Source: Bacillota bacterium
Lineage (GTDB): Bacteria > Bacillota > Limnochordia > DTU087
Length of the DNA stretch: 64,000 nucleotides
Direction of reading: 5' to 3'
Assembly: GCA_012519025.1 (NCBI GenBank)
Contig: JAAYQZ010000032.1
Coordinates: 7 to 64,006 of the forward strand
Positions 29,290 to 56,918 of the stretch are shown piece by piece; position 1 is the stretch's first letter, and each line of letters begins with the position of its first letter. A model generated the notes under the pieces. It had not been told where the DNA came from. It worked only from the letters and a program-made list of their open reading frames with translations, and did not search any database. Position numbers and translations under genes: made by a program.

Positions 29290-29351
29290 GTACCGTCGGT
29301 TTGAAAGGAGAAATGGAGGCTCGGTATTGAGGACAGTCTCCGCGAGAAACT

Positions 29352-29615: not shown

Positions 29616-29666
29616 TTTGAATGTGCAGTGCCAATAGAGAGGTTAGGGCATAAGGAGTGCAAAACT

Positions 29667-29915
29667 GTGTATCTTGCCGAGGTCATAGGGCCGGTTGTTT
29701 GTACAGTAAAACACCAGGCTTACAATGGGAAAACCATGCTTTTGATCGTCCCTCTTGAAGGAGAAGCCGCTGGTTATGAGATTGCAGTTGATTATGTTGG
29801 GGCTGGTGTAGGTGATATCGTGCTTGCCGGGGGAGCCCCGGGAGCAGCTCAGGACATATTTGGACTAGAACAAGCACCAATCAGAACATTGATTATGGGA
29901 ATTATTGATCCTTGA
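29667..29915 (+). CDS. BMC-P vertex protein (EutN/CcmL family), copy 3
   Basis: (V)YLAEVIGPVVCTVKH...VDYVGAGVGDIVLAGG...TLIMGIID. GTG 29667 lies 7 nt after AAGGAGTG, whereas the ORF track begins at 29628. Confidence 0.85.
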   Translation: MYLAEVIGPVVCTVKHQAYNGKTMLLIVPLEGEAAGYEIAVDYVGAGVGDIVLAGGAPGAAQDIFGLEQAPIRTLIMGIIDP

Positions 29916-29965
29916 GTCTTAAGCCCACAACAAGCCGGCCAACGAAACTAAAGGAGGCGGCACAC

Positions 29966-30631
29966 TTGAATGAAGCGGATTTACGCATTCTTGTAGATGA
30001 AATCACCCAACAGATTTTAGCAGCAAATCAAAGGGAAAGCCTTTTAAAGCAAGAGGAAGATTGGCTGCCGGTCGGTGTTTCAGTGCGCCATGTACACATT
30101 TCATCCCATGATCTTGAAGTATTGTATGGTCCCGGCTGCACACTGACACCGCTGCGGGAGCTTTACCAGGTGGGTGAGTATGCGTGTAAGGAAGTTGTCG
30201 CCTTGGTGGGCCCAAGAATGCGGGCATTGGAAAGTGTACGGATTCTCGGGCCTGTGCGGGAAAAAACTCAAGTGGAAGTATCTAGAACAGACGCTGTTTA
30301 CCTCGGTATTGATCCGCCGGTGCGGGCATCGGGAGACCTTACCGGCTCCAGCCCCATTACATTGGTGGGGCCCAAGGGTACGCTGGTCCTGCAAGAAGGT
30401 GCCATTGTCGCCAACCGCCATATTCATATGAACAGCACTGACGCGAACCGATATGGTGTTGTTGATAACGACATTGTCAAGGTAGAAGTGCTCGGTGATA
30501 AAGGACTGGTTTTCAACAACGTTCAAATCCGTGTTCAAGACTCCTTCCGTTTGCAGATGCATGTCGATACCGATGATGCCAATGCTTCTGGAATCACAAA
30601 CGGGGCCAAAGCTCGGATCCTGCCAAAATAA
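29966..30631 (+). CDS. pduL: phosphate acyltransferase PduL with N-terminal encapsulation-peptide-like helix
   Basis: Two PduL repeats with metal-binding His motifs: VGVSVRHVHIS and ANRHIHMNS. TTG 29966 lies 8 nt after AAGGAGG and gives the N-terminus MNEADLRILVDEITQQILAAN. Confidence 0.9.
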   Translation: MNEADLRILVDEITQQILAANQRESLLKQEEDWLPVGVSVRHVHISSHDLEVLYGPGCTLTPLRELYQVGEYACKEVVALVGPRMRALESVRILGPVREKTQVEVSRTDAVYLGIDPPVRASGDLTGSSPITLVGPKGTLVLQEGAIVANRHIHMNSTDANRYGVVDNDIVKVEVLGDKGLVFNNVQIRVQDSFRLQMHVDTDDANASGITNGAKARILPK

Positions 30632-30675
30632 AGAACCTGCATCTTTCACAGTATGATTTGCAAGGAGGCCCGCCG

Positions 30676-32064
30676 GTGGAAGTGAGCATAAATACACTGC
30701 TTAGCAAAGTCAAAGATGCCGGAGTAGTTGGCGCCGGCGGCGCAGGATTTCCCACCCATGTGAAGCTCGCCGGTGAAGTAGATACCATTGTGATCAATGG
30801 GGCAGAATGTGAGCCTTTGCTGGATGTGGATATACAGCTTTTGGAAAATGAGGCAGAATCGCTGCTTACCGGACTTGAGCTTTTAGTTCGCATACTGGGG
30901 GCCAAAGAGGGCATTGTTGCTTTAAAGGCCAAACATGAAAAAGCAAAAGAGCGCCTTAGGGAAGTGTTGGCCGGAAAGGATAAGGCAAGCAAGCTCAGAT
31001 TGCATTTGCTGGATGACTTTTATCCTGTCGGTGATGAGCCCATTTTGCTTTATGAGGTGGTGGGGAAGGTAGTGCCTGAGGGCAATATTCCCCTTGTTTT
31101 AAAATGCCTTGTAATCAATGTGGAGACATTGAAAAATATTATAAGGGCAATAGATGGCAAACCAGTTATTACAACTTGTGTGACAGTAGCAGGAAGAGTA
31201 AAAGAGCCCGGCACTTTTGAAATACCGGTGGGAGCCTCTATCAAATGGCTTTTAGAGGCTGTCGGCGGAGCTGATTTAGACGATTATGGGGTAATGGTCG
31301 GTGGTCCCATGACCGGCACTGTTTTAAGCAAAGCAGAAGTAGAACAAAACACATCAAAGCCGGGCCACATGCCGGTTATCACAAAAACCACAAAAGCTGT
31401 TTTGGTGCTGCCGGCAGACCACAGTATCTTTCGCCATCACGCTCTAAATATAGGTGTTGTTTTACAAAGGGCCCAATCGGCATGCTGCCAATGCAGGCTT
31501 TGCACAGATCTATGTCCCCGCTACTTGTTGGGTTATGAAATTGAGCCCCACCTTGCTTTAAATAGGATCAACCACGGACAGACCCAGGATCCGGCAGCGA
31601 TTACCCATGCGTTTTTGTGTTCAGACTGTGGTGTATGTGAGCTTTATGCTTGTCCTGTCGGTCTCTCGCCGAGGCGAATCTACCAGGCTTTCAAAGAAGA
31701 GCTGCTCAAACAAGGTGTAGCAAATCCCCATATAAAAGCAAAACCACCCAAGGGGCCAAGGGAGGCCTGGGCCGGTCGCCACATCCCCACCAACCAACTG
31801 TTGTTGAGATTGGGACTTGGGGGATATGAGCAGAAAGCCCCCTGGAGACAGTTAAAAGTCCTGCCTTCCCGAGTAACCATTCCCTTAAAACAGCATGTGG
31901 GAGTACCGGCGGAGCCTTTGGTTCAGAAAGGTGAAATAGTCGAGGCCGGTCAATTAATAGGGGAACCACCGGTTTCTGCACTGGGTGCATCAATACACTC
32001 AAGCATCAATGGTCGAATTTCAGAAGTCACTGAAAAAGCCGTGGTGATTCAAATTGATGGTTAG
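30676..32064 (+). CDS. PduS/RnfC-like Fe-S flavoprotein, copy 2
   Basis: GVVGAGGAGFPTHVKL and NGAECEPLL. Cys clusters CCQCRLCTDLCP and CSDCGVCELYACP. C-terminal barrel-like KGEIVEAGQLIGEPPVSALGASIHSSINGRI. GTG 30676 lies 7 nt after AAGGAGG. Confidence 0.8.
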   Translation: MEVSINTLLSKVKDAGVVGAGGAGFPTHVKLAGEVDTIVINGAECEPLLDVDIQLLENEAESLLTGLELLVRILGAKEGIVALKAKHEKAKERLREVLAGKDKASKLRLHLLDDFYPVGDEPILLYEVVGKVVPEGNIPLVLKCLVINVETLKNIIRAIDGKPVITTCVTVAGRVKEPGTFEIPVGASIKWLLEAVGGADLDDYGVMVGGPMTGTVLSKAEVEQNTSKPGHMPVITKTTKAVLVLPADHSIFRHHALNIGVVLQRAQSACCQCRLCTDLCPRYLLGYEIEPHLALNRINHGQTQDPAAITHAFLCSDCGVCELYACPVGLSPRRIYQAFKEELLKQGVANPHIKAKPPKGPREAWAGRHIPTNQLLLRLGLGGYEQKAPWRQLKVLPSRVTIPLKQHVGVPAEPLVQKGEIVEAGQLIGEPPVSALGASIHSSINGRISEVTEKAVVIQIDG

Positions 32065-32692
32065 TGCCTCAAAACAGCACAAAAAGGGTCGTCAGCCATT
32101 TGATGCTCTAGGATTCCTGGAGATTCAGGGGGCAGCCCGGGGAATACAGGCTTTGGATGCGGGATGTAAAACAGCTTCAATTAATGTGCTAAAAGCTAAT
32201 GTTGCCTGCCCTGATAAATACACCATACTTTTCACTGGGTCTGCAGAAGATGTCGCGGCTGCATATAGCGCGGCTGCAGCCGCGATCGGGGCAGGCTATT
32301 ATGACGGCTGTCAGATCGGGCGAGTGCATCCAGATTTAGCCCATGGTCTAATGGGTATTTTTGGTCATACCGGTTGTGAGCGAAATGCGGGTTGGGAATC
32401 TGCACCCAAAGGTGAGAGCGATACCCCAAAAGGCAGCGATGCTGTAGGCGTGCTTGAGACTTTGTCAATTGCCTCGGGGATCAAAACAGCCGATTGTGCC
32501 CTTAAAGCAGGGTATGTAGTACTTAAAGAACTGCATTTAGGTTATGCACTCGGCGGCCGCAGTTATTGGCTGATAACCGGCGACACAGCTGCAGTACAGG
32601 CTGCGATGGAAGCTGCTGCAGACTGCGGTAAGGAACTTGGAAGGCTTGGGAGTTATTCCTTAATTTTGCAGCCGGGAACGCAAGTGTCTTAA
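32054..32692 (+). CDS. BMC-T shell protein, PduT-like with enlarged inter-domain linker, paralog 3
   Basis: Repeat 1 is ALGFLEIQGAARG...KANVACPDKYTILFTGSAEDV, with the Cys at the PduT position. A ~35-aa linker follows (GHTGCERNAGWESAPKGESDTPKGS). Repeat 2 is AVGVLETLSIASGIKTADCALKAG. Overlaps the upstream stop. Confidence 0.75.
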   Translation: MMVSASKQHKKGRQPFDALGFLEIQGAARGIQALDAGCKTASINVLKANVACPDKYTILFTGSAEDVAAAYSAAAAAIGAGYYDGCQIGRVHPDLAHGLMGIFGHTGCERNAGWESAPKGESDTPKGSDAVGVLETLSIASGIKTADCALKAGYVVLKELHLGYALGGRSYWLITGDTAAVQAAMEAAADCGKELGRLGSYSLILQPGTQVS

Positions 32693-32806
32693 AGCCAGCA
32701 CGCCAGGTCGGCAGTTGCGTCTTGGTGCCAGAATTGAGCGAAAGTTGATTAAAAGAAGGAGCGCAAAACTCCAGGGAAGAATTATATATTGAGGAGGGTT
32801 AGTGTG

Positions 32807-34039
32807 ATGGTACCGAAGCCCGAACCTAGAATCAAGCGGTTTGAAGAATTGGCATATGGGATGTTTATTCATTGGGGCCTTTACTCTTTGTTGGGTAAGG
32901 GAGAATGGATCATGCACCAGGCGAATATTCCCAAAGAGGAATATGCAAGATTAAAACATGAGTTTCGAGCCGACGAATTCCATGCACGGGCTGTAGCAAA
33001 GCTTGCGCGGACGGCGGGTATGCGCTACATCACAATTACGTCAAGACATCATGATGGTTTCTCTTTATACGATACACGGGGTCTAAGTGATTATGATGCC
33101 CCCAACAGTGCCGCGGGGCGGGATCTGATTGCCGAATTTGTGGAAGGCTGTAATGCAGAAGGGATTTTGCCGTTTTTTTATCATACCACACTGGATTGGT
33201 ATCAGGAAAGTTTTCAGGAGGATTTTACCGGTTATCTGGAGTACTTGAGGAGTTCAGTCAAGCTTTTGTGCACAAACTACGGTAAAATCGGGGGTTTGTG
33301 GTTTGACGGCAATTGGAGCAGGCCTGACGCAGATTGGGAACTTGACGCATTATATGGGCTGATTCGCAAATACCAACCGGAAGCCATGATCATCAACAAC
33401 ACCGGTCTTGAGGCCAGAGGCCGGATAATTCACCATGAGATTGACAGTGTTACCTTTGAGCAGGGACGCCCTTTGCCTTTGGAAAGGGAGGGTATGGAGA
33501 AATATGTTTCCGGCGAAATGTGTCAGACTATGAACCAACACTGGGGGTTAGGAGAGCGAGATTTTGCTTATATGTCGCCCAGGGAGCTGATTGAAAACTT
33601 CGCGGCTTGTCGCAAAGTTGGGGCTAACTATCTGCTGAATGTCGGACCCACCGCTTCCGGCCGTATCCCCGATTATGAAGCTGCCGCACTTTTGCGGGTG
33701 GGACAGTGGATTGAGCTTTATGGCGATTTGATGTATAAAGGCAGACCTACTACAATAAAGGGCTCCGGAGATGACTTTGCCTTAGAATATGACGGCAAAA
33801 TTTATCTGTTTGTGTATAATTTGTCGGTGCGAGGCGACAAAAATGTAGTTCGTATGACTTCGGGCGCTGGTCCACGGCTGTTTACAGATTGGGAGCAGCC
33901 AGTGAGGTGTGTACGCTGGTTGGATAATGATGAGGAACTTGCATTCACCCATGATGCAGACCGAGCATGGTTGGTTGTAGATGCTGCCGGATATCCATAT
34001 GGGACCAATTTGGTTGTGCGAGTGGCAGAGGTGACATAG
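32807..34039 (+). CDS. GH29 alpha-L-fucosidase, no signal peptide
   Basis: YGMFIHWGLYS, ITITSRHHDGFSLYD, GGLWFDGNW and ANYLLNVGP are typical GH29 blocks. The start lies behind a GAGGAGGG RBS. Confidence 0.85.
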   Translation: MVPKPEPRIKRFEELAYGMFIHWGLYSLLGKGEWIMHQANIPKEEYARLKHEFRADEFHARAVAKLARTAGMRYITITSRHHDGFSLYDTRGLSDYDAPNSAAGRDLIAEFVEGCNAEGILPFFYHTTLDWYQESFQEDFTGYLEYLRSSVKLLCTNYGKIGGLWFDGNWSRPDADWELDALYGLIRKYQPEAMIINNTGLEARGRIIHHEIDSVTFEQGRPLPLEREGMEKYVSGEMCQTMNQHWGLGERDFAYMSPRELIENFAACRKVGANYLLNVGPTASGRIPDYEAAALLRVGQWIELYGDLMYKGRPTTIKGSGDDFALEYDGKIYLFVYNLSVRGDKNVVRMTSGAGPRLFTDWEQPVRCVRWLDNDEELAFTHDADRAWLVVDAAGYPYGTNLVVRVAEVT

Positions 34040-36025: not shown

Positions 36026-37840
36026 ATGGCCTATCAAATGGAGCATGAGCAGCATACAGCACCTGTTGACCGCGGTATGCTATTGCGGTTGGTTAGATAT
36101 CTGGGGCCGCATAAAAAGCAGCTGGCTGCAGCTGTTGCTTTAATGCTCGGTGTCTCAGCAACTACTTTGGCTATTCCTTATTTGAGTAAAATAGCAATTG
36201 ATAACTATATTAGTTCCGGCGATCTACGCGGTGTAGACAAGATTGCCCTTTCCATGGGCGCGCTCTTTGTTATCAGCTGGATTTTATCGTACAGAAGAAG
36301 TTTTGTGATGGCATCAATGGGACAAAGAATTATTTATACTATGCGCCAGGGTCTATATGAGCATCTGCAGCGTTTATCCTTGCGCTATTACGATAATATG
36401 CAGGTAGGTAGGCTGATTACTCGGCTCACCAGCGATATCGATGCATTGAATGAACTTCTAAGTGGGGGTGTCATCAACTTTATCAGCGATACAGTGACTC
36501 TGGTCGGCATTTTGGCAATCATGTTTACCATGAATGTCCGCCTGACTGCTTTGACTTTGGTTACTGTGCCATTCCTGCTTTATATGGTGACCGGTTTTCG
36601 GATGCGCATTTTTCTGGCGCAAAGACGGGTGCGTGAAAAAGTAGCCGTTGTCAACACCAGTCTGCAGGAGAACATTTCGGGGGTGCGGGTTACCCAGGCG
36701 TTTTCCCGAGAGGAAGAAAACTTGAAGCGCTTTGGAGTGCTCAACGAAGACAGTTACGATGCCGCCGTGAAGGCAGTTGGCATTTTCGCTTTCTTTTGGC
36801 CCATTATCGATTTGATTTCGGTCGCGGGCACAGTGATTGTGCTTTGGTTCGGCGGGCGTTGGCTTGTGCAGGGCGATCTCACTGTGGGAGAAATGGTGGC
36901 CTTTATCAGCTATACAGGACAATTCTTCGGGCCCCTTAGAAACCTGGGACAGCTGTTTCGGGTGATTCAAACCGCCATGGCCGGTGCAGAGCGGGTGTTT
37001 GGCATATTGGATACAGAGCCTGAGATTCAGGATAAGCCCGGGGCCGTGGAGCTGCCGACGATTCATGGACATGTGGAATTTGCAGGGGTTCATTTTGCCT
37101 ATGAAGGCGAAGATTATGTTCTGGAAGATATTGACCTTGATGTACAGCCCGGTGAAACAATTGCTTTTGTGGGACATACTGGAGCCGGCAAAACTTCAAT
37201 GATTAACATACTTTGCCGATTTTATGACATTCAAAAAGGCAGTATCAAGATAGATGGCCTCGATATTCGCGATGTTACTCAAAAATCCCTGCGTTCTCAA
37301 ATTGGGTTAGTTTTGCAGGAACCGTTTTTGTTTTCAGGCACTGTGCGGGAAAATTTGTTGTACGGTAATCCTTACGCCGGTGAAGAAGATATGTTGGAAG
37401 TTACAAAAGCCTTGGGAATCCATGACTTCATAGAGCGCCTCAGCGATGGATACGATACTGACGTACAGGAGCGGGGCAGCAAATTGTCCTTAGGCCAAAG
37501 GCAGTTGGTATCATTTGCAAGGGCTATTATCAATGATCCAAGGATTTTGGTATTGGATGAGGCCACTGCTAATATCGATACCCAAACAGAGCAAATTATC
37601 CAAACTGCACTTGAGCATATGCTAGCCGGCCGTACTTCGTTTGTCATTGCCCACAGGCTGACTACTATTCAAAAGGCCGATAAGATCGTTGTCATTGATC
37701 ACGGGCGCATCGTCGAAATGGGCACCCACGAGGAACTGTTGGAGCAAGATGGAGTTTACCACAGGCTGTATATGGTACAGTTTGCCCATGCTGTGGAATC
37801 CGAGAAAGCCCTAAGTTACGAGGCTGATAGCAAATCCTGA
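36026..37840 (+). CDS. ABC exporter, fused permease/ATPase (heterodimer partner 2)
   Basis: Walker A GHTGAGKTS, signature LSLGQRQL and Walker B ILVLDEAT. GGGGAG RBS. Confidence 0.9.
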   Translation: MAYQMEHEQHTAPVDRGMLLRLVRYLGPHKKQLAAAVALMLGVSATTLAIPYLSKIAIDNYISSGDLRGVDKIALSMGALFVISWILSYRRSFVMASMGQRIIYTMRQGLYEHLQRLSLRYYDNMQVGRLITRLTSDIDALNELLSGGVINFISDTVTLVGILAIMFTMNVRLTALTLVTVPFLLYMVTGFRMRIFLAQRRVREKVAVVNTSLQENISGVRVTQAFSREEENLKRFGVLNEDSYDAAVKAVGIFAFFWPIIDLISVAGTVIVLWFGGRWLVQGDLTVGEMVAFISYTGQFFGPLRNLGQLFRVIQTAMAGAERVFGILDTEPEIQDKPGAVELPTIHGHVEFAGVHFAYEGEDYVLEDIDLDVQPGETIAFVGHTGAGKTSMINILCRFYDIQKGSIKIDGLDIRDVTQKSLRSQIGLVLQEPFLFSGTVRENLLYGNPYAGEEDMLEVTKALGIHDFIERLSDGYDTDVQERGSKLSLGQRQLVSFARAIINDPRILVLDEATANIDTQTEQIIQTALEHMLAGRTSFVIAHRLTTIQKADKIVVIDHGRIVEMGTHEELLEQDGVYHRLYMVQFAHAVESEKALSYEADSKS

Positions 37841-39258
37841 ATCTGATTGCATCTTGCAAAAAACTCCACACCGTGTTTAAAAGCAGTAAGGCCGTAAAGC
37901 ATGGAGCTCCAATCTATTACCGAGGTGTGTTGGGGATACCAGGGTCTAGAATCCCGGGCATTGATTTGTAAACGGGTTAGACCATATCTGTAAGCACTTT
38001 GAAAACGGATGGAATCTACCGGATCCCGGGGTGCCCGGTGGGGTTTGTCATAGGGGATCAAAGTGTGGTAGATATCGTAAAGATCATACATCCCCTGGGG
38101 ATACACCGGCAGAAAGCCGGCTATAATGTATGGCGATGCTACAGACAAAGGATTGTTGCCAATCGCGTCGGGGTGGTAGTGCCCGGCCGGCGTTACGCCG
38201 GCTCCGTGGCCCCACACGAATGTAGGGGCATTGTGGCATTGGAGCCAATCCATTCGATCGGCATATGCGACATTGGCATATAGGTCTTGGTAAATGGGGC
38301 TTAAGGTGTACTCATGTACAAGGTAAAAGGGGAATTGATACACAAAAGATGAAGGAATGTTATCAGTTTCACAAATAATACGTCGTCCGGCTCCCACACA
38401 CTGCATCGGCAGTAGGTGGAGCTGGTCGGGGGCATAAATGTTTTCCCACAACTGTTGACCTGTTTGTGAACCTCGGGCCATATTGGCTAAAATTGAATAC
38501 TCATTATAAGGGGCGAGGGGGTTAAAACCTCGGCCTTTTCTTATTTCCAAGTATATATCGCCTGTAGTAGGGTTGGAGACTGCGGCTCCCCAGTCAACGG
38601 AATTGTATAACTGCATCGCCAGGCGGGCAATTTCGTCGTTTTTTTGGAAATAGCGCATTGCAAAAAGAGCTCCACTGACCAACAAAGCTGTATCTATAGT
38701 GGAGATCTCTGAGTCCCATCGGTGGGCGCCGTTCTCGGCATCGATGAAATGGGCGAAAAAACCGGTTCCCGGATCTTTGTGAGGCTTAATACCCGGTATA
38801 TCCCCCACCATAGCCTGCAAACTGTGAATAACTTGTGCTTCCGCATTTTGTTCCCAACCGTTGTAATCACCTATACATAAAGCGATCAATCCGACACCGG
38901 TTGCCGCAATGGAACTGGGCAAAGAACTCTGGCCGATGGCAACATAAGCATCATAATAAAGTCCGGATTCTGGGTGACGCATGTCTTTAACTAACTGGTA
39001 GGCACGTTGATACTGGCCGTCGAAAAAATCCTGCAAAGCCGCAGGCAGTGCTTCATAACGAGACATTACCTCAAAGGAGGATTTGCGGCGAGTTTGGCAC
39101 ACATAGGCTGCTCCTTTACTAGATGAAATAAAGCTACCTGCTCCTAAATTATTTATTGGCGCACAGTGTGGAAAATCCTTTAGAAGCAGCCCTAGTAACT
39201 CTTGGTCACAAACCCACTTTTGCCAGTGCAGTGGGAATTTGTTGTTTTTGGTTTGCAA
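37816..39258 (-). CDS. cytoplasmic protein of uncertain function, possibly (alpha/alpha)6-barrel glucoamylase/beta-1,2-glucanase-like
   Basis: 480-aa ORF. TTG 39258 lies 6 nt after GGAGG. SEISTIDTALLVSGALFAMRYF and SVDWGAA resemble blocks I associate with the putative-glucoamylase/DUF3131 fold. The product assignment is from memory only. Its 3' end overlaps the convergent ABC gene by 25 nt. Confidence 0.45.
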   Translation of the reverse strand: MQTKNNKFPLHWQKWVCDQELLGLLLKDFPHCAPINNLGAGSFISSSKGAAYVCQTRRKSSFEVMSRYEALPAALQDFFDGQYQRAYQLVKDMRHPESGLYYDAYVAIGQSSLPSSIAATGVGLIALCIGDYNGWEQNAEAQVIHSLQAMVGDIPGIKPHKDPGTGFFAHFIDAENGAHRWDSEISTIDTALLVSGALFAMRYFQKNDEIARLAMQLYNSVDWGAAVSNPTTGDIYLEIRKGRGFNPLAPYNEYSILANMARGSQTGQQLWENIYAPDQLHLLPMQCVGAGRRIICETDNIPSSFVYQFPFYLVHEYTLSPIYQDLYANVAYADRMDWLQCHNAPTFVWGHGAGVTPAGHYHPDAIGNNPLSVASPYIIAGFLPVYPQGMYDLYDIYHTLIPYDKPHRAPRDPVDSIRFQSAYRYGLTRLQINARDSRPWYPQHTSVIDWSSMLYGLTAFKHGVEFFARCNQIQDLLSAS

Positions 39259-48565: not shown

Positions 48566-49354
48566 ATGAGTGTTATTTTGACTGATGGGGATTACAAAAT
48601 TTTGAAGCAAAGCCTAAAAACTACCATTGGCTTGGATCTAAGCCAGTATAAACAACAGCAAATGCAGCGGCGAATCAGGCAGTGGTTGGATCGCACCGGA
48701 GTTAAGACATATAAAGAATATCTTAAAATACTGGAATCCAGTGAAGAGGAACGGCTGAAATTTACCGAATACCTGACGATCAATACATCCCAGTTTTATC
48801 GGGATGTTTCAGTGTTTAAGGAAATCGAGGAAAAAGTGCTGCCGGATCTGCTTCAGCGTTTCCGCAGGTTGAAAATTTGGAGTGCGGGAGCGTCCATAGG
48901 TGCCGAAATATATACTGTGGCCATGATCCTGCAAGAACTCAGCCCCAACACCGCCCATACGCTTTTAGGCACAGATTTTGATCAAAGTGCTTTGGTGAAA
49001 GCTGGAGCGGGGGTATATGGGGAGAACCTTTTGAACAGCCTGCCCAGTTTATATAAGAATAAATACTTTACCCAAGAAAACGGGTCTTTTAAAATCGATG
49101 CCGGCATCAAAGGCAAAGTTAGACTTAAAAGACACAACCTTTTGGAAGATTCCTATGAAAAAGGTTTTCATATGATTTTGTGCCGCAATGTTTTTATCTA
49201 TTTCACACCAGAGACCCAGGCCCGTTTGACCAAACAGTTTAGTGAATCCCTGGTACCCGGCGGCATTTTTGTTGTCGGCAGTGCCGAAAATCTGATGGCC
49301 CCGGAAACAGCGGATCTGAAGCGGGTTTCGTACTGCATTTATCAAAAGGATTGA
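48566..49354 (+). CDS. cheR: chemotaxis protein methyltransferase CheR
   Basis: TINTSQFYRD, SAM-binding KIWSAGASIGAEIYTVAMIL and ILCRNVFIYF. Confidence 0.9.
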   Translation: MSVILTDGDYKILKQSLKTTIGLDLSQYKQQQMQRRIRQWLDRTGVKTYKEYLKILESSEEERLKFTEYLTINTSQFYRDVSVFKEIEEKVLPDLLQRFRRLKIWSAGASIGAEIYTVAMILQELSPNTAHTLLGTDFDQSALVKAGAGVYGENLLNSLPSLYKNKYFTQENGSFKIDAGIKGKVRLKRHNLLEDSYEKGFHMILCRNVFIYFTPETQARLTKQFSESLVPGGIFVVGSAENLMAPETADLKRVSYCIYQKD

Positions 49355-50339
49355 GCTGTAGTTTGCTGAGGACATTACCTAATGTATCAACTGCCAAAGA
49401 GTGGGGGAGCAAATCAAGTTCCCGGCGGGCTTTTTGGCAGTATTTGTTAAACACGATCTGTGATTTTTCAATTCCATTACTGGTTTTGACCAACTCATAG
49501 GCAGCATCCCAATCCTCGGGCGATATGTAAGGTTTCTTCAAAATAGAACGCAGTCCAGTGTGTGCAGCAGATTGCAAAGCATAAATTACCGGTAAGGTGA
49601 AATTGCCCTTCCGCATATCGCTGGAGGTGGGTTTTCCCAATTCAGACTCCTGACCAGTAAAATCTAAAATGTCATCTCGAATTTGAAAAGCCATACCCAA
49701 ATAGGATCCAAAACGTCTGAGTCTTGCGACCACACTCTGTCCGGCCCCCGATTCCACTGCACCCAATGATGCACTAATGGCAAACAGTGCGGCTGTTTTG
49801 CCTTTAATTTTCCGCAGGTACTGCCGTATAGAAAGATCGACATTGTAGCGTTCAGAGTGCTGACATACTTCCGACTCACAGACAATTTTAAGGGCTCTTG
49901 CCAATTTTGCCAGGTGATCAACGCTTTTGCAGTCAGCTAACAAAAGTATACTGCGGGTAAACAAATAGTCCCCAGTATAAACGGCAACATCTTTACCAAA
50001 GCGTTCGTGGACAGCCGGCTGCCCTCTCCGATAGCGGGATTCGTCAATAATATCATCATGAATCAGTGTAGCCATATGCAGGATCTCCACGGCAGCTGCA
50101 ATATTCCGGATATTTCCAGAGGACTTAGGACCAAATGTAGAGGCAAGCAAGACTAACGCCGGTCTCAGCCTTTTTCCGCCTGCCGAGGCCAACTGGATGC
50201 CGGCTTGGGTCAGCGTATTCTCCCGGGATTTGACATGGTCAAAAATTATCTCTTCCACTTTTTCCAATTGGACCTGGAGTTCAAGGTTATCTTGCCAAAA
50301 ATCCAGTGTCATGATATTTGCTAGCCTCAACTTTCCCAA
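49239..50339 (-). CDS. polyprenyl diphosphate synthase (HepT/DmkB-like, long-chain trans-IPPS)
   Basis: First DDxxD in LIHDDIIDES and second in FQIRDDILDF, plus KRLRPAL. The last ~38 codons overlap the cheR 3' end and do not look family-like. Confidence 0.85.
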   Translation of the reverse strand: MGKLRLANIMTLDFWQDNLELQVQLEKVEEIIFDHVKSRENTLTQAGIQLASAGGKRLRPALVLLASTFGPKSSGNIRNIAAAVEILHMATLIHDDIIDESRYRRGQPAVHERFGKDVAVYTGDYLFTRSILLLADCKSVDHLAKLARALKIVCESEVCQHSERYNVDLSIRQYLRKIKGKTAALFAISASLGAVESGAGQSVVARLRRFGSYLGMAFQIRDDILDFTGQESELGKPTSSDMRKGNFTLPVIYALQSAAHTGLRSILKKPYISPEDWDAAYELVKTSNGIEKSQIVFNKYCQKARRELDLLPHSLAVDTLGNVLSKLQLNPFDKCSTKPASDPLFPGPSDFRHCRQQKCRRVPGIH

Positions 50340-50351
50340 GGTTGTACCAAC

Positions 50352-50906
50352 TCAGTGATGATCATCGGCCACCGGGGTCAGACGGGATCTTTTCAGTGCA
50401 TTGACAGTTAGATCGCTGATCACACCGATGAAAAACCCGGTGACCAGTGCAGAAACAACCAAAATAGGAAAATAAACAAATATATTAAAAGTCTCAACTA
50501 CCAGCCCTGCCATGAGAATCTGACCCAGGTTGTGGCAAAACGCCCCGGCCACACTGATGGCAGGTGTACTGAATATGTGCCTGTACTTCAAGAGAGCGGA
50601 CATAATTAGGAAACTTAAAATACCGCCCGCGAGACTAAAAAGTACGCTGCTTGCGCCGCCACCCAGCAAAGCACCTAAAAAGCTCCGCAAAAGCAGGATC
50701 AGCCAGGCATCACCCCAAGGCAAAATACTAAGAGCAACCAATGTGATGATGTTGGCAAGGCCCAGTTTGACACCGGGTGCCAATTGCGGCACAGGCAGCA
50801 GCCGCTCTATGCCGTGCAGCATCAAAGCTTGGGAAACGAAGACACCAATCCAAGTAATGCGGCGTACAGATAATGGGGTCTTTTTTCTTCTAGAACGCAA
50901 TGCCAT
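50352..50906 (-). CDS. Gx transporter family membrane protein (heptaprenyl diphosphate synthase component I-like, PF07456-type)
   Basis: About 5 TM segments with the GVKLGLANIITLVAL motif typical of this family. Overlaps the upstream gene by 17 nt. Confidence 0.7.
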   Translation of the reverse strand: MALRSRRKKTPLSVRRITWIGVFVSQALMLHGIERLLPVPQLAPGVKLGLANIITLVALSILPWGDAWLILLLRSFLGALLGGGASSVLFSLAGGILSFLIMSALLKYRHIFSTPAISVAGAFCHNLGQILMAGLVVETFNIFVYFPILVVSALVTGFFIGVISDLTVNALKRSRLTPVADDHH

Positions 50907-51318
50907 CGATCTCCTCTACTTCATCTTGAGCAGGTAAAATATTGATTAAAAGGCGGTTCGGCAAACAAATGATTGATTGGTAAGGGAGCGAGATCCAGCC
51001 CTGCTTTACATCAATCTGATCAGGGCATGATGCCTCAATGACACGTATGCGTCCATTCTCCACTCTGATAGTGTTGTAGTGACCTCCACCCAATTCCACG
51101 GTGAATTCATATGGAGCTTTCACTTTTTTAAGATCAACTCTGTGCACTTCTTGACCATCTGATGTAACAACGGCCACGGAAGCAGCAGTTTTGTTGCCGC
51201 TGACTGTAATGGCGGTACCTAAGGCAAAAATTGCGATGAGAACGGTGTAGATGATCAGATCACCGGGTTTGAAGTAGCGATTTTGCCAATTTCTGTGGTA
51301 CTTATTCATAGAGTTCAA
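50890..51318 (-). CDS. NusG domain II-like (DUF1312) membrane-anchored protein
   Basis: N-terminal TM segment (LIIYTVLIAIFALGTAITV) followed by a ~100-aa beta domain with ENGRIRVIEASCPDQIDVKQGWI. The family is recalled from frequent pairing with ApbE and Gx genes. Confidence 0.6.
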   Translation of the reverse strand: MNSMNKYHRNWQNRYFKPGDLIIYTVLIAIFALGTAITVSGNKTAASVAVVTSDGQEVHRVDLKKVKAPYEFTVELGGGHYNTIRVENGRIRVIEASCPDQIDVKQGWISLPYQSIICLPNRLLINILPAQDEVEEIDGIAF

Positions 51319-52336
51319 ATCCTTCTGCTAAAGATAAGAGCCGACCTTTCAGACCACTTGTCACATAAACCAGTCTGTTGTCGCCAACCAAGATCCCCTC
51401 GACATTGTCCAGGTTTTCCAAAAGTTCAAGGCCCTTTTCCATACCTAATATAAATACCCCCGTTGCAAGAGCATCTGCAGCAGTGGAAGACGGAGACACA
51501 ATCGTCACGCTGGCTAAACCGCTTTCCGCAGGATAACCGCTTACGGGATCCAGGATATGATGGTATCGTATGCCGTCCTCAATAAAGTATCTCTCATAAG
51601 GGCCTGAGGTCACAATGGAGGTATCCTCAACCTCCAAAACCGCCATGTGGGTGCCTCTGGGGGCCTCGGGATTTTGAATACCGATGCGCCAAGGAGTTCC
51701 ATCGGGCTTTGCCCCCAGCACATACACATTGCCGCCTAGATTTAAAAAGGCGCTCTTTACTCCCTGATTCCTCAAAAACGCTGCTGCCGCATCTGCGCCA
51801 TAACCCTTGGCAATAGCCCCCAGATCAATTCCCATACCGGCGGCACCAAGCTTAACTTGTCTCTTTTCGACATCAAGCTGAATATCATGGTAGTTGATCA
51901 GCTGTTTTCTCTCTTCAACTGCTTCAGCGGAAGGTAGGCTTGCCCGAGGGGTGCCTATGGCCCACAGTTCCACTAAAGGCCCGATACTGGGTTCAAAAAG
52001 CCCCTGGGTAAGTGCTGCATATTCAATGCTTGCTTGAATGACGTGAAATGTGTCTTGATCAACTTTTACCCAGCTTTCCCCGGCACTTGCATTAATTGCA
52101 TAGATATAACTGTCGGGATGTGTGCGGCTCATGGCATGATCCACTTCCTCAATGCGTTTAAAAGCACCCCGCATTGCACTTTGGCTTCCGAAGACCCGCA
52201 TTTCAACCAATGTTCCCATCAGCCACTGGCTGTCGGAAACTGCAGTTGGTGTTCGGTCATTAGTCAAAAGGGCCCAAAGAACCGCGCTGAGCAATAATAT
52301 TATGATGCTTAACTTAAGAATCCGATCGAGTTTCAT
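51302..52336 (-). CDS. apbE: FAD:protein FMN transferase ApbE, membrane-anchored / extracytoplasmic
   Basis: ApbE blocks GIDLGAIAKGY, LNLGGNV, HHILDPVSGYP and ADALATG. The N-terminal hydrophobic anchor is KLSIIILLLSAVLWALL. ATG 52336 lies 8 nt after GAGG, whereas the ORF track begins at 52366. Confidence 0.85.
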   Translation of the reverse strand: MKLDRILKLSIIILLLSAVLWALLTNDRTPTAVSDSQWLMGTLVEMRVFGSQSAMRGAFKRIEEVDHAMSRTHPDSYIYAINASAGESWVKVDQDTFHVIQASIEYAALTQGLFEPSIGPLVELWAIGTPRASLPSAEAVEERKQLINYHDIQLDVEKRQVKLGAAGMGIDLGAIAKGYGADAAAAFLRNQGVKSAFLNLGGNVYVLGAKPDGTPWRIGIQNPEAPRGTHMAVLEVEDTSIVTSGPYERYFIEDGIRYHHILDPVSGYPAESGLASVTIVSPSSTAADALATGVFILGMEKGLELLENLDNVEGILVGDNRLVYVTSGLKGRLLSLAEGFELYE

Positions 52337-52435
52337 AGATCTCGCCTCTAGATAAAATAGATTCACTGCAAATACCCCAAAAGTATATCACACTTAGCAA
52401 ACTATTGGTGTCCGGCGGTAGTGAGGACTGCCGGG

Positions 52436-53314
52436 CTAGGTTAATAAGTCCAAAACAGTAAAAACCATGAGAATTGGACTGACGATCTCATTTACGTTGT
52501 AGGCTGCAATCTTTACCTGGCCTAAATTATCGGGTGTGACAATAACGTGCTCATACAGTAAAAGCCCAGCGACAATCAAAAGCCCGACAAGATAAACATT
52601 CCCAAGTGGTACAAACCAACGCAGCATGTAAAGCAGCACCACAGAGAAAATATGCATAGCGGAAGAAATTTTTAAAGCCTTGGGAATACCGAAGGCCGCC
52701 GGAATCGAAAAAAGTCCCGTCTTTCTGTCAAACTCCACATCTAAAGTGCCGTATATTACGTCAAAACCGGCGACCCAAAGTGCAACAGCTGCTCCCAAAA
52801 GGAGGGCCGCAATTCCAATGGTGTTGGTAATGGCGATCCAGGCACCGACAGGTGCGCCGGCCACAGCCGCACCTAAAACAAGGTGACAAAGCCAAGTAAA
52901 TCGCTTTGTGTAGGAATAGATGAAAAAAATCAACATCGGTATAGGCAACAGCACTACATAGATGGGGTCCAGCTTATATGCTGCCAAAACAAGCACAGCA
53001 AAACAAGCTAAAGTGAAAACGGCCGCTTCAAAATATTTTATCAGGCCTTGGGGCAGATGGCGATGGCAGGTGCGGGGGTTTAGGGCATCAATATCTCGAT
53101 CAATGATGCGGTTGAGGGCATTGGCACCGTTTCGAGCCCCTAATACAGCCGCACAGATCCAAAACAGGCGCCCAAGATCCGGCAGCCCTCCGGCAGCCAT
53201 AAACGCGCCTGTTACAGCAAATGGGAAAGCGAATAAAGTGTGCCTGAACATGACCATATCTCCAAGCTGTTGAACTTTAGTCCAAGCCGTAACTGGCCCA
53301 CTTTTGACTGACAA
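52436..53314 (-). CDS. UbiA-family aromatic prenyltransferase (MqnP/MenA/DmkA-like)
   Basis: NRIIDRDIDALNPRT (NxxxDxxxD) and a polytopic membrane profile. TTG 53314 lies 9 nt after GAGGAGG, inside the ubiD 3' end (38-nt overlap). That start gives a family-typical ~292-aa protein beginning ...KVQQLGDMVMFRHTLFAFPF. Confidence 0.85.
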   Translation of the reverse strand: MSVKSGPVTAWTKVQQLGDMVMFRHTLFAFPFAVTGAFMAAGGLPDLGRLFWICAAVLGARNGANALNRIIDRDIDALNPRTCHRHLPQGLIKYFEAAVFTLACFAVLVLAAYKLDPIYVVLLPIPMLIFFIYSYTKRFTWLCHLVLGAAVAGAPVGAWIAITNTIGIAALLLGAAVALWVAGFDVIYGTLDVEFDRKTGLFSIPAAFGIPKALKISSAMHIFSVVLLYMLRWFVPLGNVYLVGLLIVAGLLLYEHVIVTPDNLGQVKIAAYNVNEIVSPILMVFTVLDLLT

Positions 53315-54719
53315 GTTCCTTGACCTCCTCAGACATGATAATATCCTGGGGCCATATGCGGGGGTGTCCCTCTTCAGGCCACTTTTTAGTAGCATCTATA
53401 CCCAGTTTGTGACCGTAATGCCTGTGGGGCGAGGCGTGGTCTAAAGCATCCAAAGGGCCATCCACAATAGTCAAATCCCGGGCGGCATCAATATTATTAA
53501 ACACTTTCCACATGACGGTGGAAAGATCAGATGGGCTGATATCACCATCAACGACAATGATCATTTTAGTAAACATCATTTGCCCCATGCCCCAAACGGC
53601 GTGCATGACTTTTTTTGCATGGCCGGGGAAGCGTTTGTTGATGGAAATAATGGCACAATTGTGAAACACCCCTTCCAGGGGCAGGTTGATATCGACAATT
53701 TCAGGCATCTGCAGTTTCAAAATCGGCAAAAAGATTCGTTCTGTGGCTTTTGCCATATAGCAATCTTCCATGGGAGGTTTGCCTACTACAGTCGCCGGAT
53801 AAATAGGATCACGGCGCCGGGTAATGCAGGTCAGATGAAAAACAGGGTAATGGTCCTGGAGTGAATAGTAGCCGGTGTGATCTCCAAAAGGTCCCTCCAG
53901 GCGTTTTTCATCGAGATCGACGTAGCCTTCTAAAATGAATTCAGCCTGGGCCGGCACCTCCAGATCAGAAGTAATACATTGCACAGTTTCCACACCTTGT
54001 TTCCGCAAAAACCCCGCAAACAACAATTCATCAATTTCTTTAGGAAGTGGTGCTGTTGCCGCGTAAATGGTGGCAGGGTCAGCCCCCAAAGCGACAGCTA
54101 CAGGCATGGGTTTTTCCACTTCTTTGTATTTTAAATAATTCTCCCGACCGTCTTTGTGAATGTGCCAATGCATACCGGTGGTTTTGCTGTCATATACATG
54201 CATACGATACATGCCCATATTCTGTTGATTGGTGACAGGATCTTTTGTGATCACTATAGGAAGCGTGATAAAGCGTCCACCATCCTGCGGCCAGCATTTT
54301 AAGATGGGCAAAGTATCCAGGTTTGGCTCTGTTTCAACAATTTCCTGGCAGGGCGCATGTCTGACTCTCTTGGGAAAAACACCGGCCAGATCCAGCAAAC
54401 GGGGCACAGCCTTGATTTTATTTAACAAGCCTGCATATGACGATACATCCAAAAGTTCTTCAATCTCTTTGGCGATCTCGTCAAGGTCGTTTACTCCAAG
54501 GGCAGTGGCCATCCTTTGGTATGAGCCCATGGAATTGATTAAGACAGGATAATCGGATCCTTGCACATTTTCAAACAAAAGTGCCGGACCACCGGCTTTA
54601 CAAATGCGATCAGTGATCTCAGTTATTTCAAGTTCCGGGTTGACTGCTGTTTGAACACGCCTCAGCTCACCTTGACGCTCTAAAATCTCGATAAATTCAC
54701 GCAGATTCTTAAAGGTCAA
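53277..54719 (-). CDS. UbiD-family (prFMN-dependent) decarboxylase, menaquinone/ubiquinone-type
   Basis: The family-typical N-terminus (M)TFKNLREFIEILERQGEL follows TTG 54719, which lies 6 nt after GGGGAG. GGPALLFENV and EIDELLFAGFLR are also present. The ORF track extends to 54794. Confidence 0.85.
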   Translation of the reverse strand: MTFKNLREFIEILERQGELRRVQTAVNPELEITEITDRICKAGGPALLFENVQGSDYPVLINSMGSYQRMATALGVNDLDEIAKEIEELLDVSSYAGLLNKIKAVPRLLDLAGVFPKRVRHAPCQEIVETEPNLDTLPILKCWPQDGGRFITLPIVITKDPVTNQQNMGMYRMHVYDSKTTGMHWHIHKDGRENYLKYKEVEKPMPVAVALGADPATIYAATAPLPKEIDELLFAGFLRKQGVETVQCITSDLEVPAQAEFILEGYVDLDEKRLEGPFGDHTGYYSLQDHYPVFHLTCITRRRDPIYPATVVGKPPMEDCYMAKATERIFLPILKLQMPEIVDINLPLEGVFHNCAIISINKRFPGHAKKVMHAVWGMGQMMFTKMIIVVDGDISPSDLSTVMWKVFNNIDAARDLTIVDGPLDALDHASPHRHYGHKLGIDATKKWPEEGHPRIWPQDIIMSEEVKELVSQKWASYGLD

Positions 54720-54838
54720 CTCATGCTCCCCTTTCATACCCCGGCTGATGTGGGAAAACGGTACTGCTTCTTCGCACATTGTAGCACAGTTCACACAGTG
54801 TTACCATGGATTTAGCCAAGATAACACAATGTCCCGAC

Positions 54839-54867
54839 TTAACTAATACTTCCCACTATGGTATAAT
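54839..54867 (+). promoter_or_regulatory. sigma-A promoter (extended -10) for the NDH-2 fusion gene
   Basis: TTAACT (54839-54844), a 17-nt spacer ending TGg, then TATAAT (54862-54867). It lies about 130 nt upstream of ATG 54999. Confidence 0.55.
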
Positions 54868-54998
54868 TACCCTATATTCACACTAGGTGCAATCTTACTT
54901 ATGACCGTGAAAAGCCAAGAGCTGATGGGTGGTTTTGATCGCAGATCAGATGATTTACTTTGTGAGGCTGTTAGCAGGGAAAGGAGTGGTGAAGAACC

Positions 54999-56918
54999 AT
55001 GAAACGTATAGTCATTTTAGGAGCGGGATATGGGGGTGTGGCCGCGGCCTTGCGGCTGCAGAAGCGGCTGCGTCGGTCCAGGGATATAGATATCATGCTG
55101 ATTGACCGCAACCATTTTCACACTTTACTTACAGAAGTACATGAGGTGGCCGGAAACCGGGTTAAGGAAGATGCTGTTGTAGTGCCTTTAGAGCGGATTT
55201 TTCAGTATACGAAAGTTAAAGTGGTTGTCGATGAAGTGAAAACAGTAGATTTCGAAAGCCACACTGTACAGGCCGTCGGGGGCGACTACCCGTATGACTA
55301 TCTTATTGTCAGTATGGGGGGCAAACCCGCATTTTACGGTATTGATGGCATAGAGGAACATGCATTGACTTTATGGTCCTATGATGATGCCCTTAAAGTT
55401 AAGGGGCATATTCGTTCCATGTTCCGCAAAGCGGCCCGGGAGAAAAATCCAGGTCGCCGCAGAGAGTTGTTGACTTTTGTTGTCGGAGGCGGGGGATTTA
55501 CCGGTATTGAACTAGTCGGTGAACTGGCCCGTTGGCGCCAGGAACTTTGCCTGGAATTTGGTATAAATCGAACCGATGTACGGCTTATGGTTGTAGAGGC
55601 CGCCGACAAGTGTTTGACAGACTTAGACGATGATCTGGTGGCTAAGGCAACTGGACATTTGGACAGATTGGGGGTAGAGGTGTGGACCAACTCGCCGATT
55701 TCCAAGGTCACTCCCACCTCCATCGAGATCAACGGTGAGCAAATTATTGTTAGTCACACCCTGATTTGGACCGGAGGATACGAAGCCGCAGTTTGTCCGG
55801 CGGGGCTCAATCTACCTACCGCCGGGAGAAACCGGATTGTGGTGAACGAATATCTGCAAACACAGGTGCCCAACGTTTATGCCGTTGGTGACAACAGTCA
55901 CTTTGTGGGGGAAGACGGTCAACCGCTGCCTGCTTTAGTGGAACCGGCCTTACAGGGTGGCCAAGCTGCAGCTGATAATATCTTAGCCGAGCTGAGAGGC
56001 AAAGACAAAAAGCCTTATATTCCAAAACTGCATGGTGCTATGGTATCCGTGGGACGAGGTTATGGTGTGGCACATCTATTGGGCATAAGGCTCCATGGTG
56101 TGCTGGCTGTGTTTATGAAGCATCTGGTGAATTTGCACTACCTGTTCAACATCGGAGGATTTGAGCTTGCCTTCCGCTACCTTGCCCATGAATTTAAAGA
56201 TCAAAAGACCCGGGATTGGCATATTCTCAAACACCTTTGGGCAGAGTCACAGCTGTTTTGGTTGGTGCCACTGCGGCTGTATCTGGGATATATGTGGCTT
56301 AGATCCGGGATAGACAAGGTCAACTCAGGGTGGTTGAAAGAGATATTTATCAGTGGTGCAGCCAACGGAACCAGTGCTGCAACCGCGGGGGCTGCCAACG
56401 GTGCTTTAGATATATTGGAAACTGTAGGAACAACTGGGGCCTCTTTGGCAACTGCCGCAACAGAAACACTAAATTCAGCAGCAGCGTTGGTATCCGGTGC
56501 CGCGGAAATAGCGGCCACCACCGGAGCCACCCTTGGCGCTGATGGTACAAGTGGAGCAACAGTGATGCACCTTATAAGTGACCATACACCTAAGTGGTAC
56601 GCGTGGATTATAGAACATATAGTTGTGCCCAATGCCATGGTATTTCAGTATCTGGTTGTTTTTACTGAAATCCTTTTGGGGGCAGCCTTTATCTTAGGGT
56701 TGTTTACTTTCCTGGCCGCGGCAATATCAGTGGGGATGAATATTAATTTCCTTTTGTCTACTGGTCTACATGATTATTGGTTTTTGGCAGCATCAATCGC
56801 CATGATGGCAGGGGCTGGGCGTGCATTTGGATTGGACTACTATCTATATCCCTATCTGATGAGACAGTGGCGGTATATTGCACGCAATTGGCGTCCGAAG
56901 ATATTCCTTTTTAGGTAA
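54999..56918 (+). CDS. type II NADH dehydrogenase (NDH-2) fused to a C-terminal DoxX-like 4-TM domain with an Ala/Gly/Thr-rich inserted loop
   Basis: NDH-2 motifs IVILGAGYGGVAAA, VVGGGGFTGIELVGEL and VYAVGDN in aa 1-~400. A TM helix (FWLVPLRLYLGYMWL) follows, then a ~75-aa low-complexity loop, then three more TM helices and a basic C-terminus (RQWRYIARNWRPK). Confidence 0.85.
   Translation: MKRIVILGAGYGGVAAALRLQKRLRRSRDIDIMLIDRNHFHTLLTEVHEVAGNRVKEDAVVVPLERIFQYTKVKVVVDEVKTVDFESHTVQAVGGDYPYDYLIVSMGGKPAFYGIDGIEEHALTLWSYDDALKVKGHIRSMFRKAAREKNPGRRRELLTFVVGGGGFTGIELVGELARWRQELCLEFGINRTDVRLMVVEAADKCLTDLDDDLVAKATGHLDRLGVEVWTNSPISKVTPTSIEINGEQIIVSHTLIWTGGYEAAVCPAGLNLPTAGRNRIVVNEYLQTQVPNVYAVGDNSHFVGEDGQPLPALVEPALQGGQAAADNILAELRGKDKKPYIPKLHGAMVSVGRGYGVAHLLGIRLHGVLAVFMKHLVNLHYLFNIGGFELAFRYLAHEFKDQKTRDWHILKHLWAESQLFWLVPLRLYLGYMWLRSGIDKVNSGWLKEIFISGAANGTSAATAGAANGALDILETVGTTGASLATAATETLNSAAALVSGAAEIAATTGATLGADGTSGATVMHLISDHTPKWYAWIIEHIVVPNAMVFQYLVVFTEILLGAAFILGLFTFLAAAISVGMNINFLLSTGLHDYWFLAASIAMMAGAGRAFGLDYYLYPYLMRQWRYIARNWRPKIFLFR

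Follow-up and report, generated by a model that had tools for sequence, protein, structure and literature searches.

A cluster of seven genes at 49239-56918 of the DNA analysed here (64,000 nucleotides of contig JAAYQZ010000032.1 from a Bacillota bacterium, assembly GCA_012519025.1; hereafter the window) probably encodes a module for flavin-based extracellular electron transfer (FLEET). The cluster is homologous to those of Listeria and Enterococcus, with its genes rearranged, and fits an organism of the futalosine pathway. Its dehydrogenase, a type II NADH dehydrogenase (NDH-2) fused to a DoxX-like membrane domain (hereafter Ndh), would be its own flavinylated acceptor. A loop of the membrane domain carries a canonical recognition sequence of ApbE, the enzyme that transfers flavin mononucleotide (FMN) from flavin adenine dinucleotide (FAD) to proteins. 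To judge from its gene content, the cluster belongs to a known kind of system, of which it is a variant with futalosine-type prenylation genes and with neither PplA nor FmnA encoded in the window.

Relationship of the cluster to the Listeria FLEET locus

The minus strand between 49239 and 54794 is occupied by six open reading frames (ORFs) that overlap or are separated by short gaps, and the 639-residue Ndh is encoded divergently at 54999-56918 on the plus strand. The minus-strand genes follow one another in the order ubiD (mqnL), ubiA (mqnP-like), apbE, a NusG_II gene, a PF07456 gene and a polyprenyl diphosphate synthase gene. All seven were found where a preliminary description of the sequence had placed them, and the ORF map and strong Pfam and NCBIfam matches bear out the divergent arrangement it proposed, with slight corrections to the gene starts. 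Ndh matches Pyr_redox_2 (120 bits) and DoxD (34 bits, cutoff 22.7). The ubiD ORF (53277-54794) contains three UbiD Pfam domains, and the ubiA ORF (52436-53395) matches PF01040 with 170 bits. The apbE ORF (51302-52366; PF02424, 311 bits), which spans 51302-52336 from its likely ATG start, encodes a homologue of the FAD:protein FMN transferase FmnB, anchored by one N-terminal membrane helix. The next ORF (50890-51318, or 50890-51309 from its likely ATG start) encodes a membrane helix and a NusG_II/DUF1312 domain (PF07009, 113 bits). It adjoins and overlaps by 17 nt the PF07456 gene (50352-50906, ATG start at 50906), whose product matches 'Hpre_diP_synt_I' with 145 bits and bears the NCBI family name 'Gx transporter'. 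The last gene (49239-50339) encodes a HepT-like, long-chain synthase (PF00348, 236 bits).

Five of the window proteins are 34-38% identical to Listeria FLEET proteins in BLASTP comparisons. Ndh aligns with Listeria Ndh2 across both domains, over 643 columns (window residues 2-623, Listeria residues 4-612; 38% identity, E=3e-136). ApbE aligns with FmnB (36%, E=5e-79), the NusG_II protein with EetA (36%, E=1e-15), the PF07456 protein with EetB (34%, E=9e-30) and the synthase with DmkB (38%, E=7e-69). Pfam searches of the Listeria proteins identified EetA as PF07009 (108 bits), EetB as PF07456, FmnA as CbiQ and the C-terminus of Ndh2 as DoxX, the latter just over the threshold. In E. raffinosus, the annotation reads 'NusG domain II-containing protein' for the counterpart of eetA and 'Gx transporter family protein' for that of eetB. 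EetB homologues have been defined as PF07456 in a survey where eetA was colocalised in 3,328 of 4,214 genomes and apbE in 2,169 (PMC9973259). On these matches, we assign the NusG_II protein of the window to the EetA family and its 'Gx transporter' PF07456 protein to the EetB family. EetA and EetB had been treated as absent in the preliminary description, but both sit in the operon. Listeria EetB is an FAD-binding subunit resembling the S component of energy-coupling factor (ECF) transporters, and is required for the export of the FAD used by FmnB/ApbE (Rivera-Lugo et al. 2023, PMC9973259).

The Listeria and Enterococcus loci were reached by tblastn of the window Ndh against PLSDB. The Listeria FLEET locus described by Light et al. 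in 2018 is reportedly arranged as fmnA-dmkA-fmnB-pplA divergent from ndh2-eetA-eetB-dmkB. RefSeq annotation gives fmnA-(dmkA)-FMN transferase-pplA, divergent from FAD-dependent oxidoreductase-eetA-eetB-polyprenyl synthetase. The window shares with the Listeria and Enterococcus loci an Ndh2 with a C-terminal membrane domain of DoxX type, ApbE/FmnB, adjacent EetA and EetB, a DmkB-type synthase, the order eetA-eetB-synthase and the divergence around ndh2. It differs from Listeria in that its accessory genes all lie on one side, in that an MqnP-like UbiA and MqnL stand in place of the MenA-type DmkA, and in that no PplA or FmnA is encoded in the window. Hidden Markov models (HMMs) of PplA/FMN_bind matched no window ORF at E<=1e-3, in agreement with the earlier statement that no PplA-like FMN-binding lipoprotein is present there, and no FmnA/CbiQ-type match was found in the 64 kb. 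An EET cluster has been defined operationally by a K03885 type II NADH dehydrogenase with a transmembrane helix inside a flavinylation-associated (apbE-containing) cluster (Meheust 2021, PMC8238504); in the window, an NDH-2 with a four-helix C-terminal domain lies 2.6 kb from apbE, which places the locus within this definition. As a side observation, the PLSDB 'plasmid' records NZ_LR134400.1, NZ_CP030101.1 and NZ_CP154629.1 are chromosome-sized or chromosomal pieces, a database artefact: one is a Listeria 'plasmid 3' with genes of ribosomal proteins, and the others are records of 2.9 Mb from Listeria and 2.6 Mb from Acetoanaerobium.

Conservation of the neighbourhood was assessed in metagenomes, where a scan with alignment recovered 80 full-length Ndh2-type loci. 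These were annotated with HMMs made from the window, Listeria and Enterococcus proteins, and neighbours were counted at the 42 loci flanked by 5 kb or more on each side. Further synteny came from contigs encoding homologues and from tblastn against PLSDB; a scan of genome contigs with the window Ndh alone returned only two distant NDH-2s. A polyprenyl synthase was found near the Ndh2-type gene at 34 of the 42 loci, ApbE at 30, EetB at 26 and EetA at 24. FMN_bind/PplA was present at 14 loci, a MenA-type prenyltransferase at 5, FmnA at 4, an MqnP-type UbiA at 3 and UbiD at 2. Among the Pfam-annotated contigs, that of a relative 56% identical to the window Ndh carries ApbE-NusG_II-PF07456-polyprenyl synthase divergent from the fusion gene, and that of Thermotalea metallivorans carries FMN_bind-ApbE-polyprenyl synthase in the same divergent setting. 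The core of the module consists of the Ndh2-type enzyme, ApbE, EetA/B and the polyprenyl synthase; prenyltransferases, whether of one menaquinone route or the other, are optional members. The description of the operon as an EET-like module, put forward before these comparisons, is borne out by the homology to the Listeria proteins and by the synteny with Listeria, Enterococcus and dozens of metagenomic loci.

The flavinylation motif on the predicted outer loop of Ndh

Ndh comprises an NDH-2 domain (residues 1-399) and a DoxX/DoxD-like membrane domain with four helices (residues ~400-639). The AlphaFold2 model of the protein has a pLDDT (predicted local distance difference test) score of 82. 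Its NDH-2 domain is confidently predicted and superposes on the C. thermarum NDH-2 with a TM-score of 0.95 (Foldseek). Foldseek with the full model returned NDH-2 structures only, with no solved structure covering the C-terminal domain, and an exact-sequence look-up retrieved no identical protein on record. Such fusion proteins, typically of ~590 residues, are common in Clostridia. The C-terminal domain resembles DoxD/DoxX proteins, such as the thiosulfate:quinone oxidoreductase DoxDA, in scoring over the Pfam DoxD threshold and in its four-helix topology. It differs from them by its fusion to an NDH-2 and by the flavinylation-type motif on its predicted first outer loop.

In the model, a helix at residues 422-442 is followed by a loop at residues 443-531 (56325-56591, plus strand) and then by three to four more helices. 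The loop, which separates membrane helix 1 from helix 2, is longer than usual and has a high content of Ala, Gly and Thr; in homologues it is typically 28-40 residues long. Its residues 456-520 were predicted with low confidence and are unmodelled. The loop is predicted to face outward, to the side on which ApbE acts, because the NADH-oxidising domain must be cytoplasmic and is followed by helix 422-442, and because the loop is acidic (one Lys or Arg vs seven Asp or Glu) and basic segments precede helix 1 and follow the last helix.

ApbE recognizes a sequence of seven residues, D-x-x-[S/T]-G-A-[S/T] (PMC12052999). The canonical motif occurs in the Ndh loop as DGTSGAT (residues 515-521; 56541-56561, plus strand), with Thr521 as the predicted FMN attachment site. 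Two partial motifs without the Asp, TGAS (residues 479-482) and TGAT (residues 508-511), lie at 56433-56531 on the same strand, in an insertion common only to the two closest relatives. Tandem Repeats Finder detected no DNA-level tandem repeat in the loop expansion of the window. A scan of the ORFs of 60 residues or more in all six frames of the 64 kb located D..[ST][GS]A[ST] in the Ndh loop only, and the earlier proposal that this loop is the sole candidate ApbE substrate of the window withstood it.

The same pattern was present in 80 of 118 unique loops, whereas composition-preserving shuffles of each loop yielded an expectation of 0.5 +/- 0.7. In 38 aligned homologues (48-77% identity), the motif columns contain Asp in 36, Ala or Gly in 33, Ser or Thr in 30, Ser or Gly in 29, Ala in all 38 and Ser or Thr in 36. 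An HMM alignment of 194 unique proteins placed the strict motif of 103 proteins and the relaxed form of 152 in the same columns. By these comparisons the loop motif is a feature of the family, rather than something that arose by chance from an expansion rich in Ala, Gly and Thr. In several lineages the motif has undergone tandem duplication: five DxVASAS units are found in P0004 (L091:1255-3300), with ApbE adjoining, three in L014 and two in Acetoanaerobium noterae, and the homologues with tandem copies include P0050 and L092. The tandem motifs hint at multi-flavinylated Ndh2 loops. In the Listeria-like subgroup, WLQ...[STA][GS]A[ST] is present in all six unique sequences, two of which contain the canonical DTVSGAS. 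The same loop carries TSGAS in Listeria and TTGAS in E. raffinosus; the Listeria motif has no Asp, whereas the expanded loop of the window has the full D-x-x-S-G-A-T. Trypsin is predicted to release TSGAS within a hydrophobic peptide of ~60 residues, a possible reason for a flavin there to have escaped notice.

The presence of the motif was related to that of ApbE. Of the loci with ApbE nearby, 29 of 30 had the loop motif, compared to 7 of 12 without ApbE (Fisher p=0.005, phylogeny not corrected for). In Geosporobacter ferrireducens, the genes for ApbE, EetA/B and the synthase are all missing from the neighbourhood of a paralogue that lacks the motif. At 17 of the 18 loci that are positive for ApbE and negative for PplA, no other ORF within 10 kb contained D..[ST]GA[ST]. 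The Ndh loop may be a target of ApbE, with FMN predicted on Thr521. NqrB and RnfD, which are flavinylated by ApbE, offer a parallel: they are membrane redox proteins whose FMN is attached to a Thr with S/T-G-A-S/T around it, and they shuttle electrons between cofactors in the membrane and on the extracytosolic side (PMC12052999, PMC11334425). The window Ndh differs from them in its unrelated DoxX-like four-helix fold and in having this fold and the NADH-oxidising domain fused in one polypeptide, and its flavinylation is inferred. Flavinylation of Ndh2 is not mentioned in the accessible literature; Light et al. 2018 and 2019, which lay outside that search, could comment on the Ndh2 loop.

Several observations weigh against a flavinylated loop. 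The Listeria and E. raffinosus loops lack the Asp, and their [ST]GAS is shifted by a few residues from the column of the clostridial motif, in a loop difficult to align. In most of the family, Ser replaces the Gly or occupies the attachment site (DAGTSAS etc.). G-to-A and T-to-S substitutions reduce the efficiency of ApbE (PMC12052999), and activity on variants of the DAGTSAS type is not documented in the literature read. The structural model is uninformative on the loop (pLDDT below 50), and the test of association with ApbE is not phylogenetically independent. Where a separate FMN_bind/PplA protein is encoded, at 14 of the 42 loci, the loop motif may be redundant. The motif is degenerate (DAEATAS) in the subgroup of L028, L034 and T. 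stercorarium, where a small FMN_bind gene is present without ApbE.

Some of these points would be explained if the cluster were a FLEET-type module with an unflavinylated Ndh loop. ApbE would then modify a PplA-like lipoprotein or reductases of the fumarate/urocanate type encoded elsewhere, and D-A-x-S-S-A-S would have a structural role or belong to a quinone site. The demonstrated substrates of Listeria FmnB are indeed PplA and a fumarate reductase (PMC8238504, PMC9973259); the retention of a separate FMN_bind gene at a third of the loci and the many loop variants that depart from the tested [S/T]GA[S/T] core point the same way. However, the motif agrees with the seven-residue ApbE sequence at each position, its form in the window is canonical, it is far more frequent than composition predicts, and it is tandemly duplicated in some lineages. 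It is also lost in the paralogue without flavinylation genes nearby, and is the sole candidate within 10 kb at nearly all the ApbE-positive loci without PplA. We therefore regard an unflavinylated loop as doubtful.

Proposed electron path and the quinone genes

In the mechanism that we favour, with Ndh as its own flavinylated acceptor, NADH would reduce the FAD of the NDH-2 domain, and this FAD would reduce menaquinone. By homology, the operon supplies the membrane quinone through the MqnL-type decarboxylase, the MqnP-like prenyltransferase and the DmkB-like synthase. It also supplies an extracytosolic flavinylation kit made of the membrane-anchored ApbE/FmnB and of EetB with EetA, EetB being the protein that exports FAD to ApbE in Listeria. 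The ECF T and ATPase partners of EetB would be encoded elsewhere, presumably as shared housekeeping subunits, like the Listeria ATPases. The DoxX-like domain would bind quinol and hand its electrons to the FMN attached by ApbE at Thr521 of the same polypeptide; Ser482 and Thr511 in the partial sites might be flavinylated too. The loop FMN would then pass electrons to acceptors beyond the membrane, whether free flavins, metals or flavinylated reductases. A dehydrogenase that is its own flavinylated acceptor would thus have no need of PplA.

Genetic data from other species are relevant to this scheme. Ferric reduction by E. faecalis requires Ndh3 and EetB but not PplA (PMC9864754), and flavin-dependent iron reduction by L. 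plantarum requires Ndh2 and EetA/B but not PplA, DmkA or DmkB (PMC9888254). After the reassignment of EetB to FAD export, the step from reduced quinone to the outside was left without an assigned protein (PMC9864754). A flavinylated Ndh2/3 loop would account for both genetic patterns, in which Ndh2/3 and EetA/B are required and PplA is dispensable. It is possible, and we propose it tentatively from the sequence comparisons, that EET-type Ndh2/Ndh3 proteins of Clostridia, and likewise those of Listeria, Enterococcus and Lactiplantibacillus, are ApbE substrates, one polypeptide forming the full conduit from NADH to quinone to the outside. If this is true, covalent FMN on the first outer loop of the DoxX-like domain of Ndh2/3 would be the missing step of flavin-based EET, between the quinone pool and the extracellular acceptor. 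The family-wide loop motif that tracks ApbE provides a specific, apparently unreported candidate for this outward step, in a process widespread among Gram-positive bacteria of the gut, of food and of the environment.

The first two genes of the operon point to the futalosine route. The ubiD product passes the futalosine-pathway equivalog model TIGR03701 ('mena_SCO4490') with 661 bits (cutoff 496), and is on this basis assigned as a decarboxylase equivalog of MqnL type. The best NCBIfam models of the ubiA product are of MqnP type, with scores under the three MqnP 'exception' cutoffs (287 bits vs 430 for MqnP_DT, and 235 and 197 bits vs 420 and 375); the generic TIGR01475 model is passed (286 bits, cutoff 181). 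BLASTP of the window UbiA against the Listeria dmkA region gave no match at E<=1e-3. By its position, where Listeria has the MenA-type DmkA, and by its best models, the MqnP-like UbiA is the likely functional analogue of DmkA for the futalosine route. The two genes resemble the late futalosine steps MqnP/MqnL (SCO4491/SCO4490 type) in the ubiD score and in the ubiD-ubiA overlap, as of a translationally coupled unit. They differ in that ubiA stays under the MqnP cutoffs and in that the pair is embedded in a flavinylation/NDH-2 cluster. Within the 64-kb window we found no second quinone gene set, no other men or mqn genes, no mqnA-D and no UbiX-type partner. The ubiD and ubiA genes may well be the only late menaquinone genes of the organism. 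Such a status is compatible with an EET module, in which the quinone supply would be co-transcribed with the flavinylation kit. The module is found combined with futalosine-type as well as with classical menaquinone prenylation genes, which is useful for the prediction of EET from genomes.

The preliminary description had offered, as an alternative to EET, a housekeeping respiratory cluster. Late menaquinone genes would lie beside a general NDH-2, ApbE, EetA and EetB would serve Rnf, Nqr or other flavoproteins encoded elsewhere, and no electrons would be exported. Genomes usually hold one MqnP/MqnL pair, which is consistent with this explanation, as are the TIGR03701 and MqnP matches and the single quinone gene set of the window. 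In Clostridia, moreover, the most frequent neighbours of eetB are Rnf genes (572 genomes; PMC9973259). The part of this alternative that concerns gene identity holds, the NCBIfam matches identifying an MqnL-type ubiD and an MqnP-like ubiA, but it does not compete with EET, the core being conserved without ubiA and ubiD. The ApbE-EetA-EetB-synthase block accompanies Ndh2-type genes at most of the 42 loci, UbiA and UbiD being only occasional there, and it is also present in Listeria, where its role in EET has been shown genetically. Furthermore, the NDH-2 of the window is of the Ndh2 type with an extra membrane domain and not the respiratory form of ~400 residues, and no Rnf- or Nqr-like membrane subunits are encoded within the window. 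A purely housekeeping role is thus improbable, though ApbE might in addition serve an Rnf complex encoded elsewhere. An inward flow, with reduced flavins outside the cell or cathodes feeding electrons to the quinone pool, is very unlikely. Flavin and quinone potentials allow reversal, and FLEET genes have reportedly been implicated in cathodic electron uptake by L. plantarum (PMC10701730), but NDH-2 enzymes are physiologically NADH oxidases, and the sequence is silent on direction.

Gene starts, promoters and other loci of the window

The start of ubiA is best placed at TTG 53314, which gives a gene at 52436-53314. It agrees with the N-termini of homologues, lies 9 nt downstream of a GAGGAGG ribosome-binding site (53330-53324) and leaves an overlap of 38 nt with ubiD; the earlier placement of the ubiA start within the 3' end of ubiD, behind this site, is therefore correct. 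For ubiD, GTG 54794 is probably not the start, because a conserved TGcTACAAT box occupies 54786-54778 and because ATG 54737 and TTG 54719 have better ribosome-binding sites in front of them. From the first of these two starts, the gene would span 53277-54737. At the other end of the operon, the synthase ORF extends ~30 codons past the ends of 45 homologues, and 49239-49354 forms a 116-nt overlap with the 3' end of a convergent cheR. This C-terminal extension could be due to a lost stop codon or a sequencing error.

The ndh2-type gene is preceded by a promoter at 54839-54867 on the plus strand (TTAACT, 17 nt, TG-n-TATAAT), already noted in the preliminary description and recovered here by a consensus scan with 10 of 12 matches plus the TG extension. 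Both hexamers are kept in the relative locus L005, whose Ndh is 74% identical, and their flanks diverge. On the minus strand, a candidate operon promoter was read by eye at 54778-54806: TGGTAA (54806-54801) is separated by 17 nt from TGcTACAAT (54786-54778). Its -35 box has only 3 of 6 matches, too few for the scan to report it; the two boxes are conserved in L005, with divergent neighbouring bases. This probable promoter of the minus-strand operon would lie ~30 bp from that of the plus strand. Between them, an imperfect 17-nt inverted repeat is found at 54793-54832 (ACACAGTGTTACCATGG / CCAAGATAACACAATGT), with one arm kept in L005, and may be the operator of some regulator. A Rex-type operator was considered and rejected, the only candidate between the divergent promoters being this imperfect repeat, whose half-sites are wrongly spaced. 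Scans of the window for Rfam families and tRNAs gave no matches, including no riboswitch in the ~130-nt ndh leader, a stretch with poor conservation in L005. The number of terminator-like hits within the operon equalled that expected from shuffled sequences (10 vs 9.4), and these hits were disregarded.

Other loci of the window were also annotated. A microcompartment locus at 22659-32692 encodes a class II aldolase, an aldehyde dehydrogenase, two PduS-like proteins (Complex1_51K + Fer4 + RnfC_N) and three BMC-domain shell proteins, together with an acetate kinase and a phosphate propanoyltransferase. An alpha-L-fucosidase gene follows at 32789-34039. This gene content suggests a microcompartment of the fucose/rhamnose aldolase type. 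The two RnfC_N/Complex1_51K proteins (25269-26636 and 30658-32064) were considered as parts of an Rnf complex, and this assignment was rejected since they are PduS-like and belong to the microcompartment locus. The gene at 7246-9426 encodes a 726-residue fusion of a phosphotransferase system EIIC permease domain (residues 30-353) with an EAL cyclic di-GMP phosphodiesterase domain (residues 463-698), an unusual pairing. Two ORFs of 480 and 376 residues (37816-39258, minus strand, and 4791-5921, plus strand) have no Pfam match at E<=1e-5. Finally, a pair of FAD-dependent oxidoreductases is encoded at 16583-19448 on the minus strand, a DAO protein with a BFD-like [2Fe-2S] domain lying beside a Pyr_redox_2 protein. 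The pair resembles the anaerobic glycerol-3-phosphate dehydrogenase type and is possibly another quinone-linked dehydrogenase.

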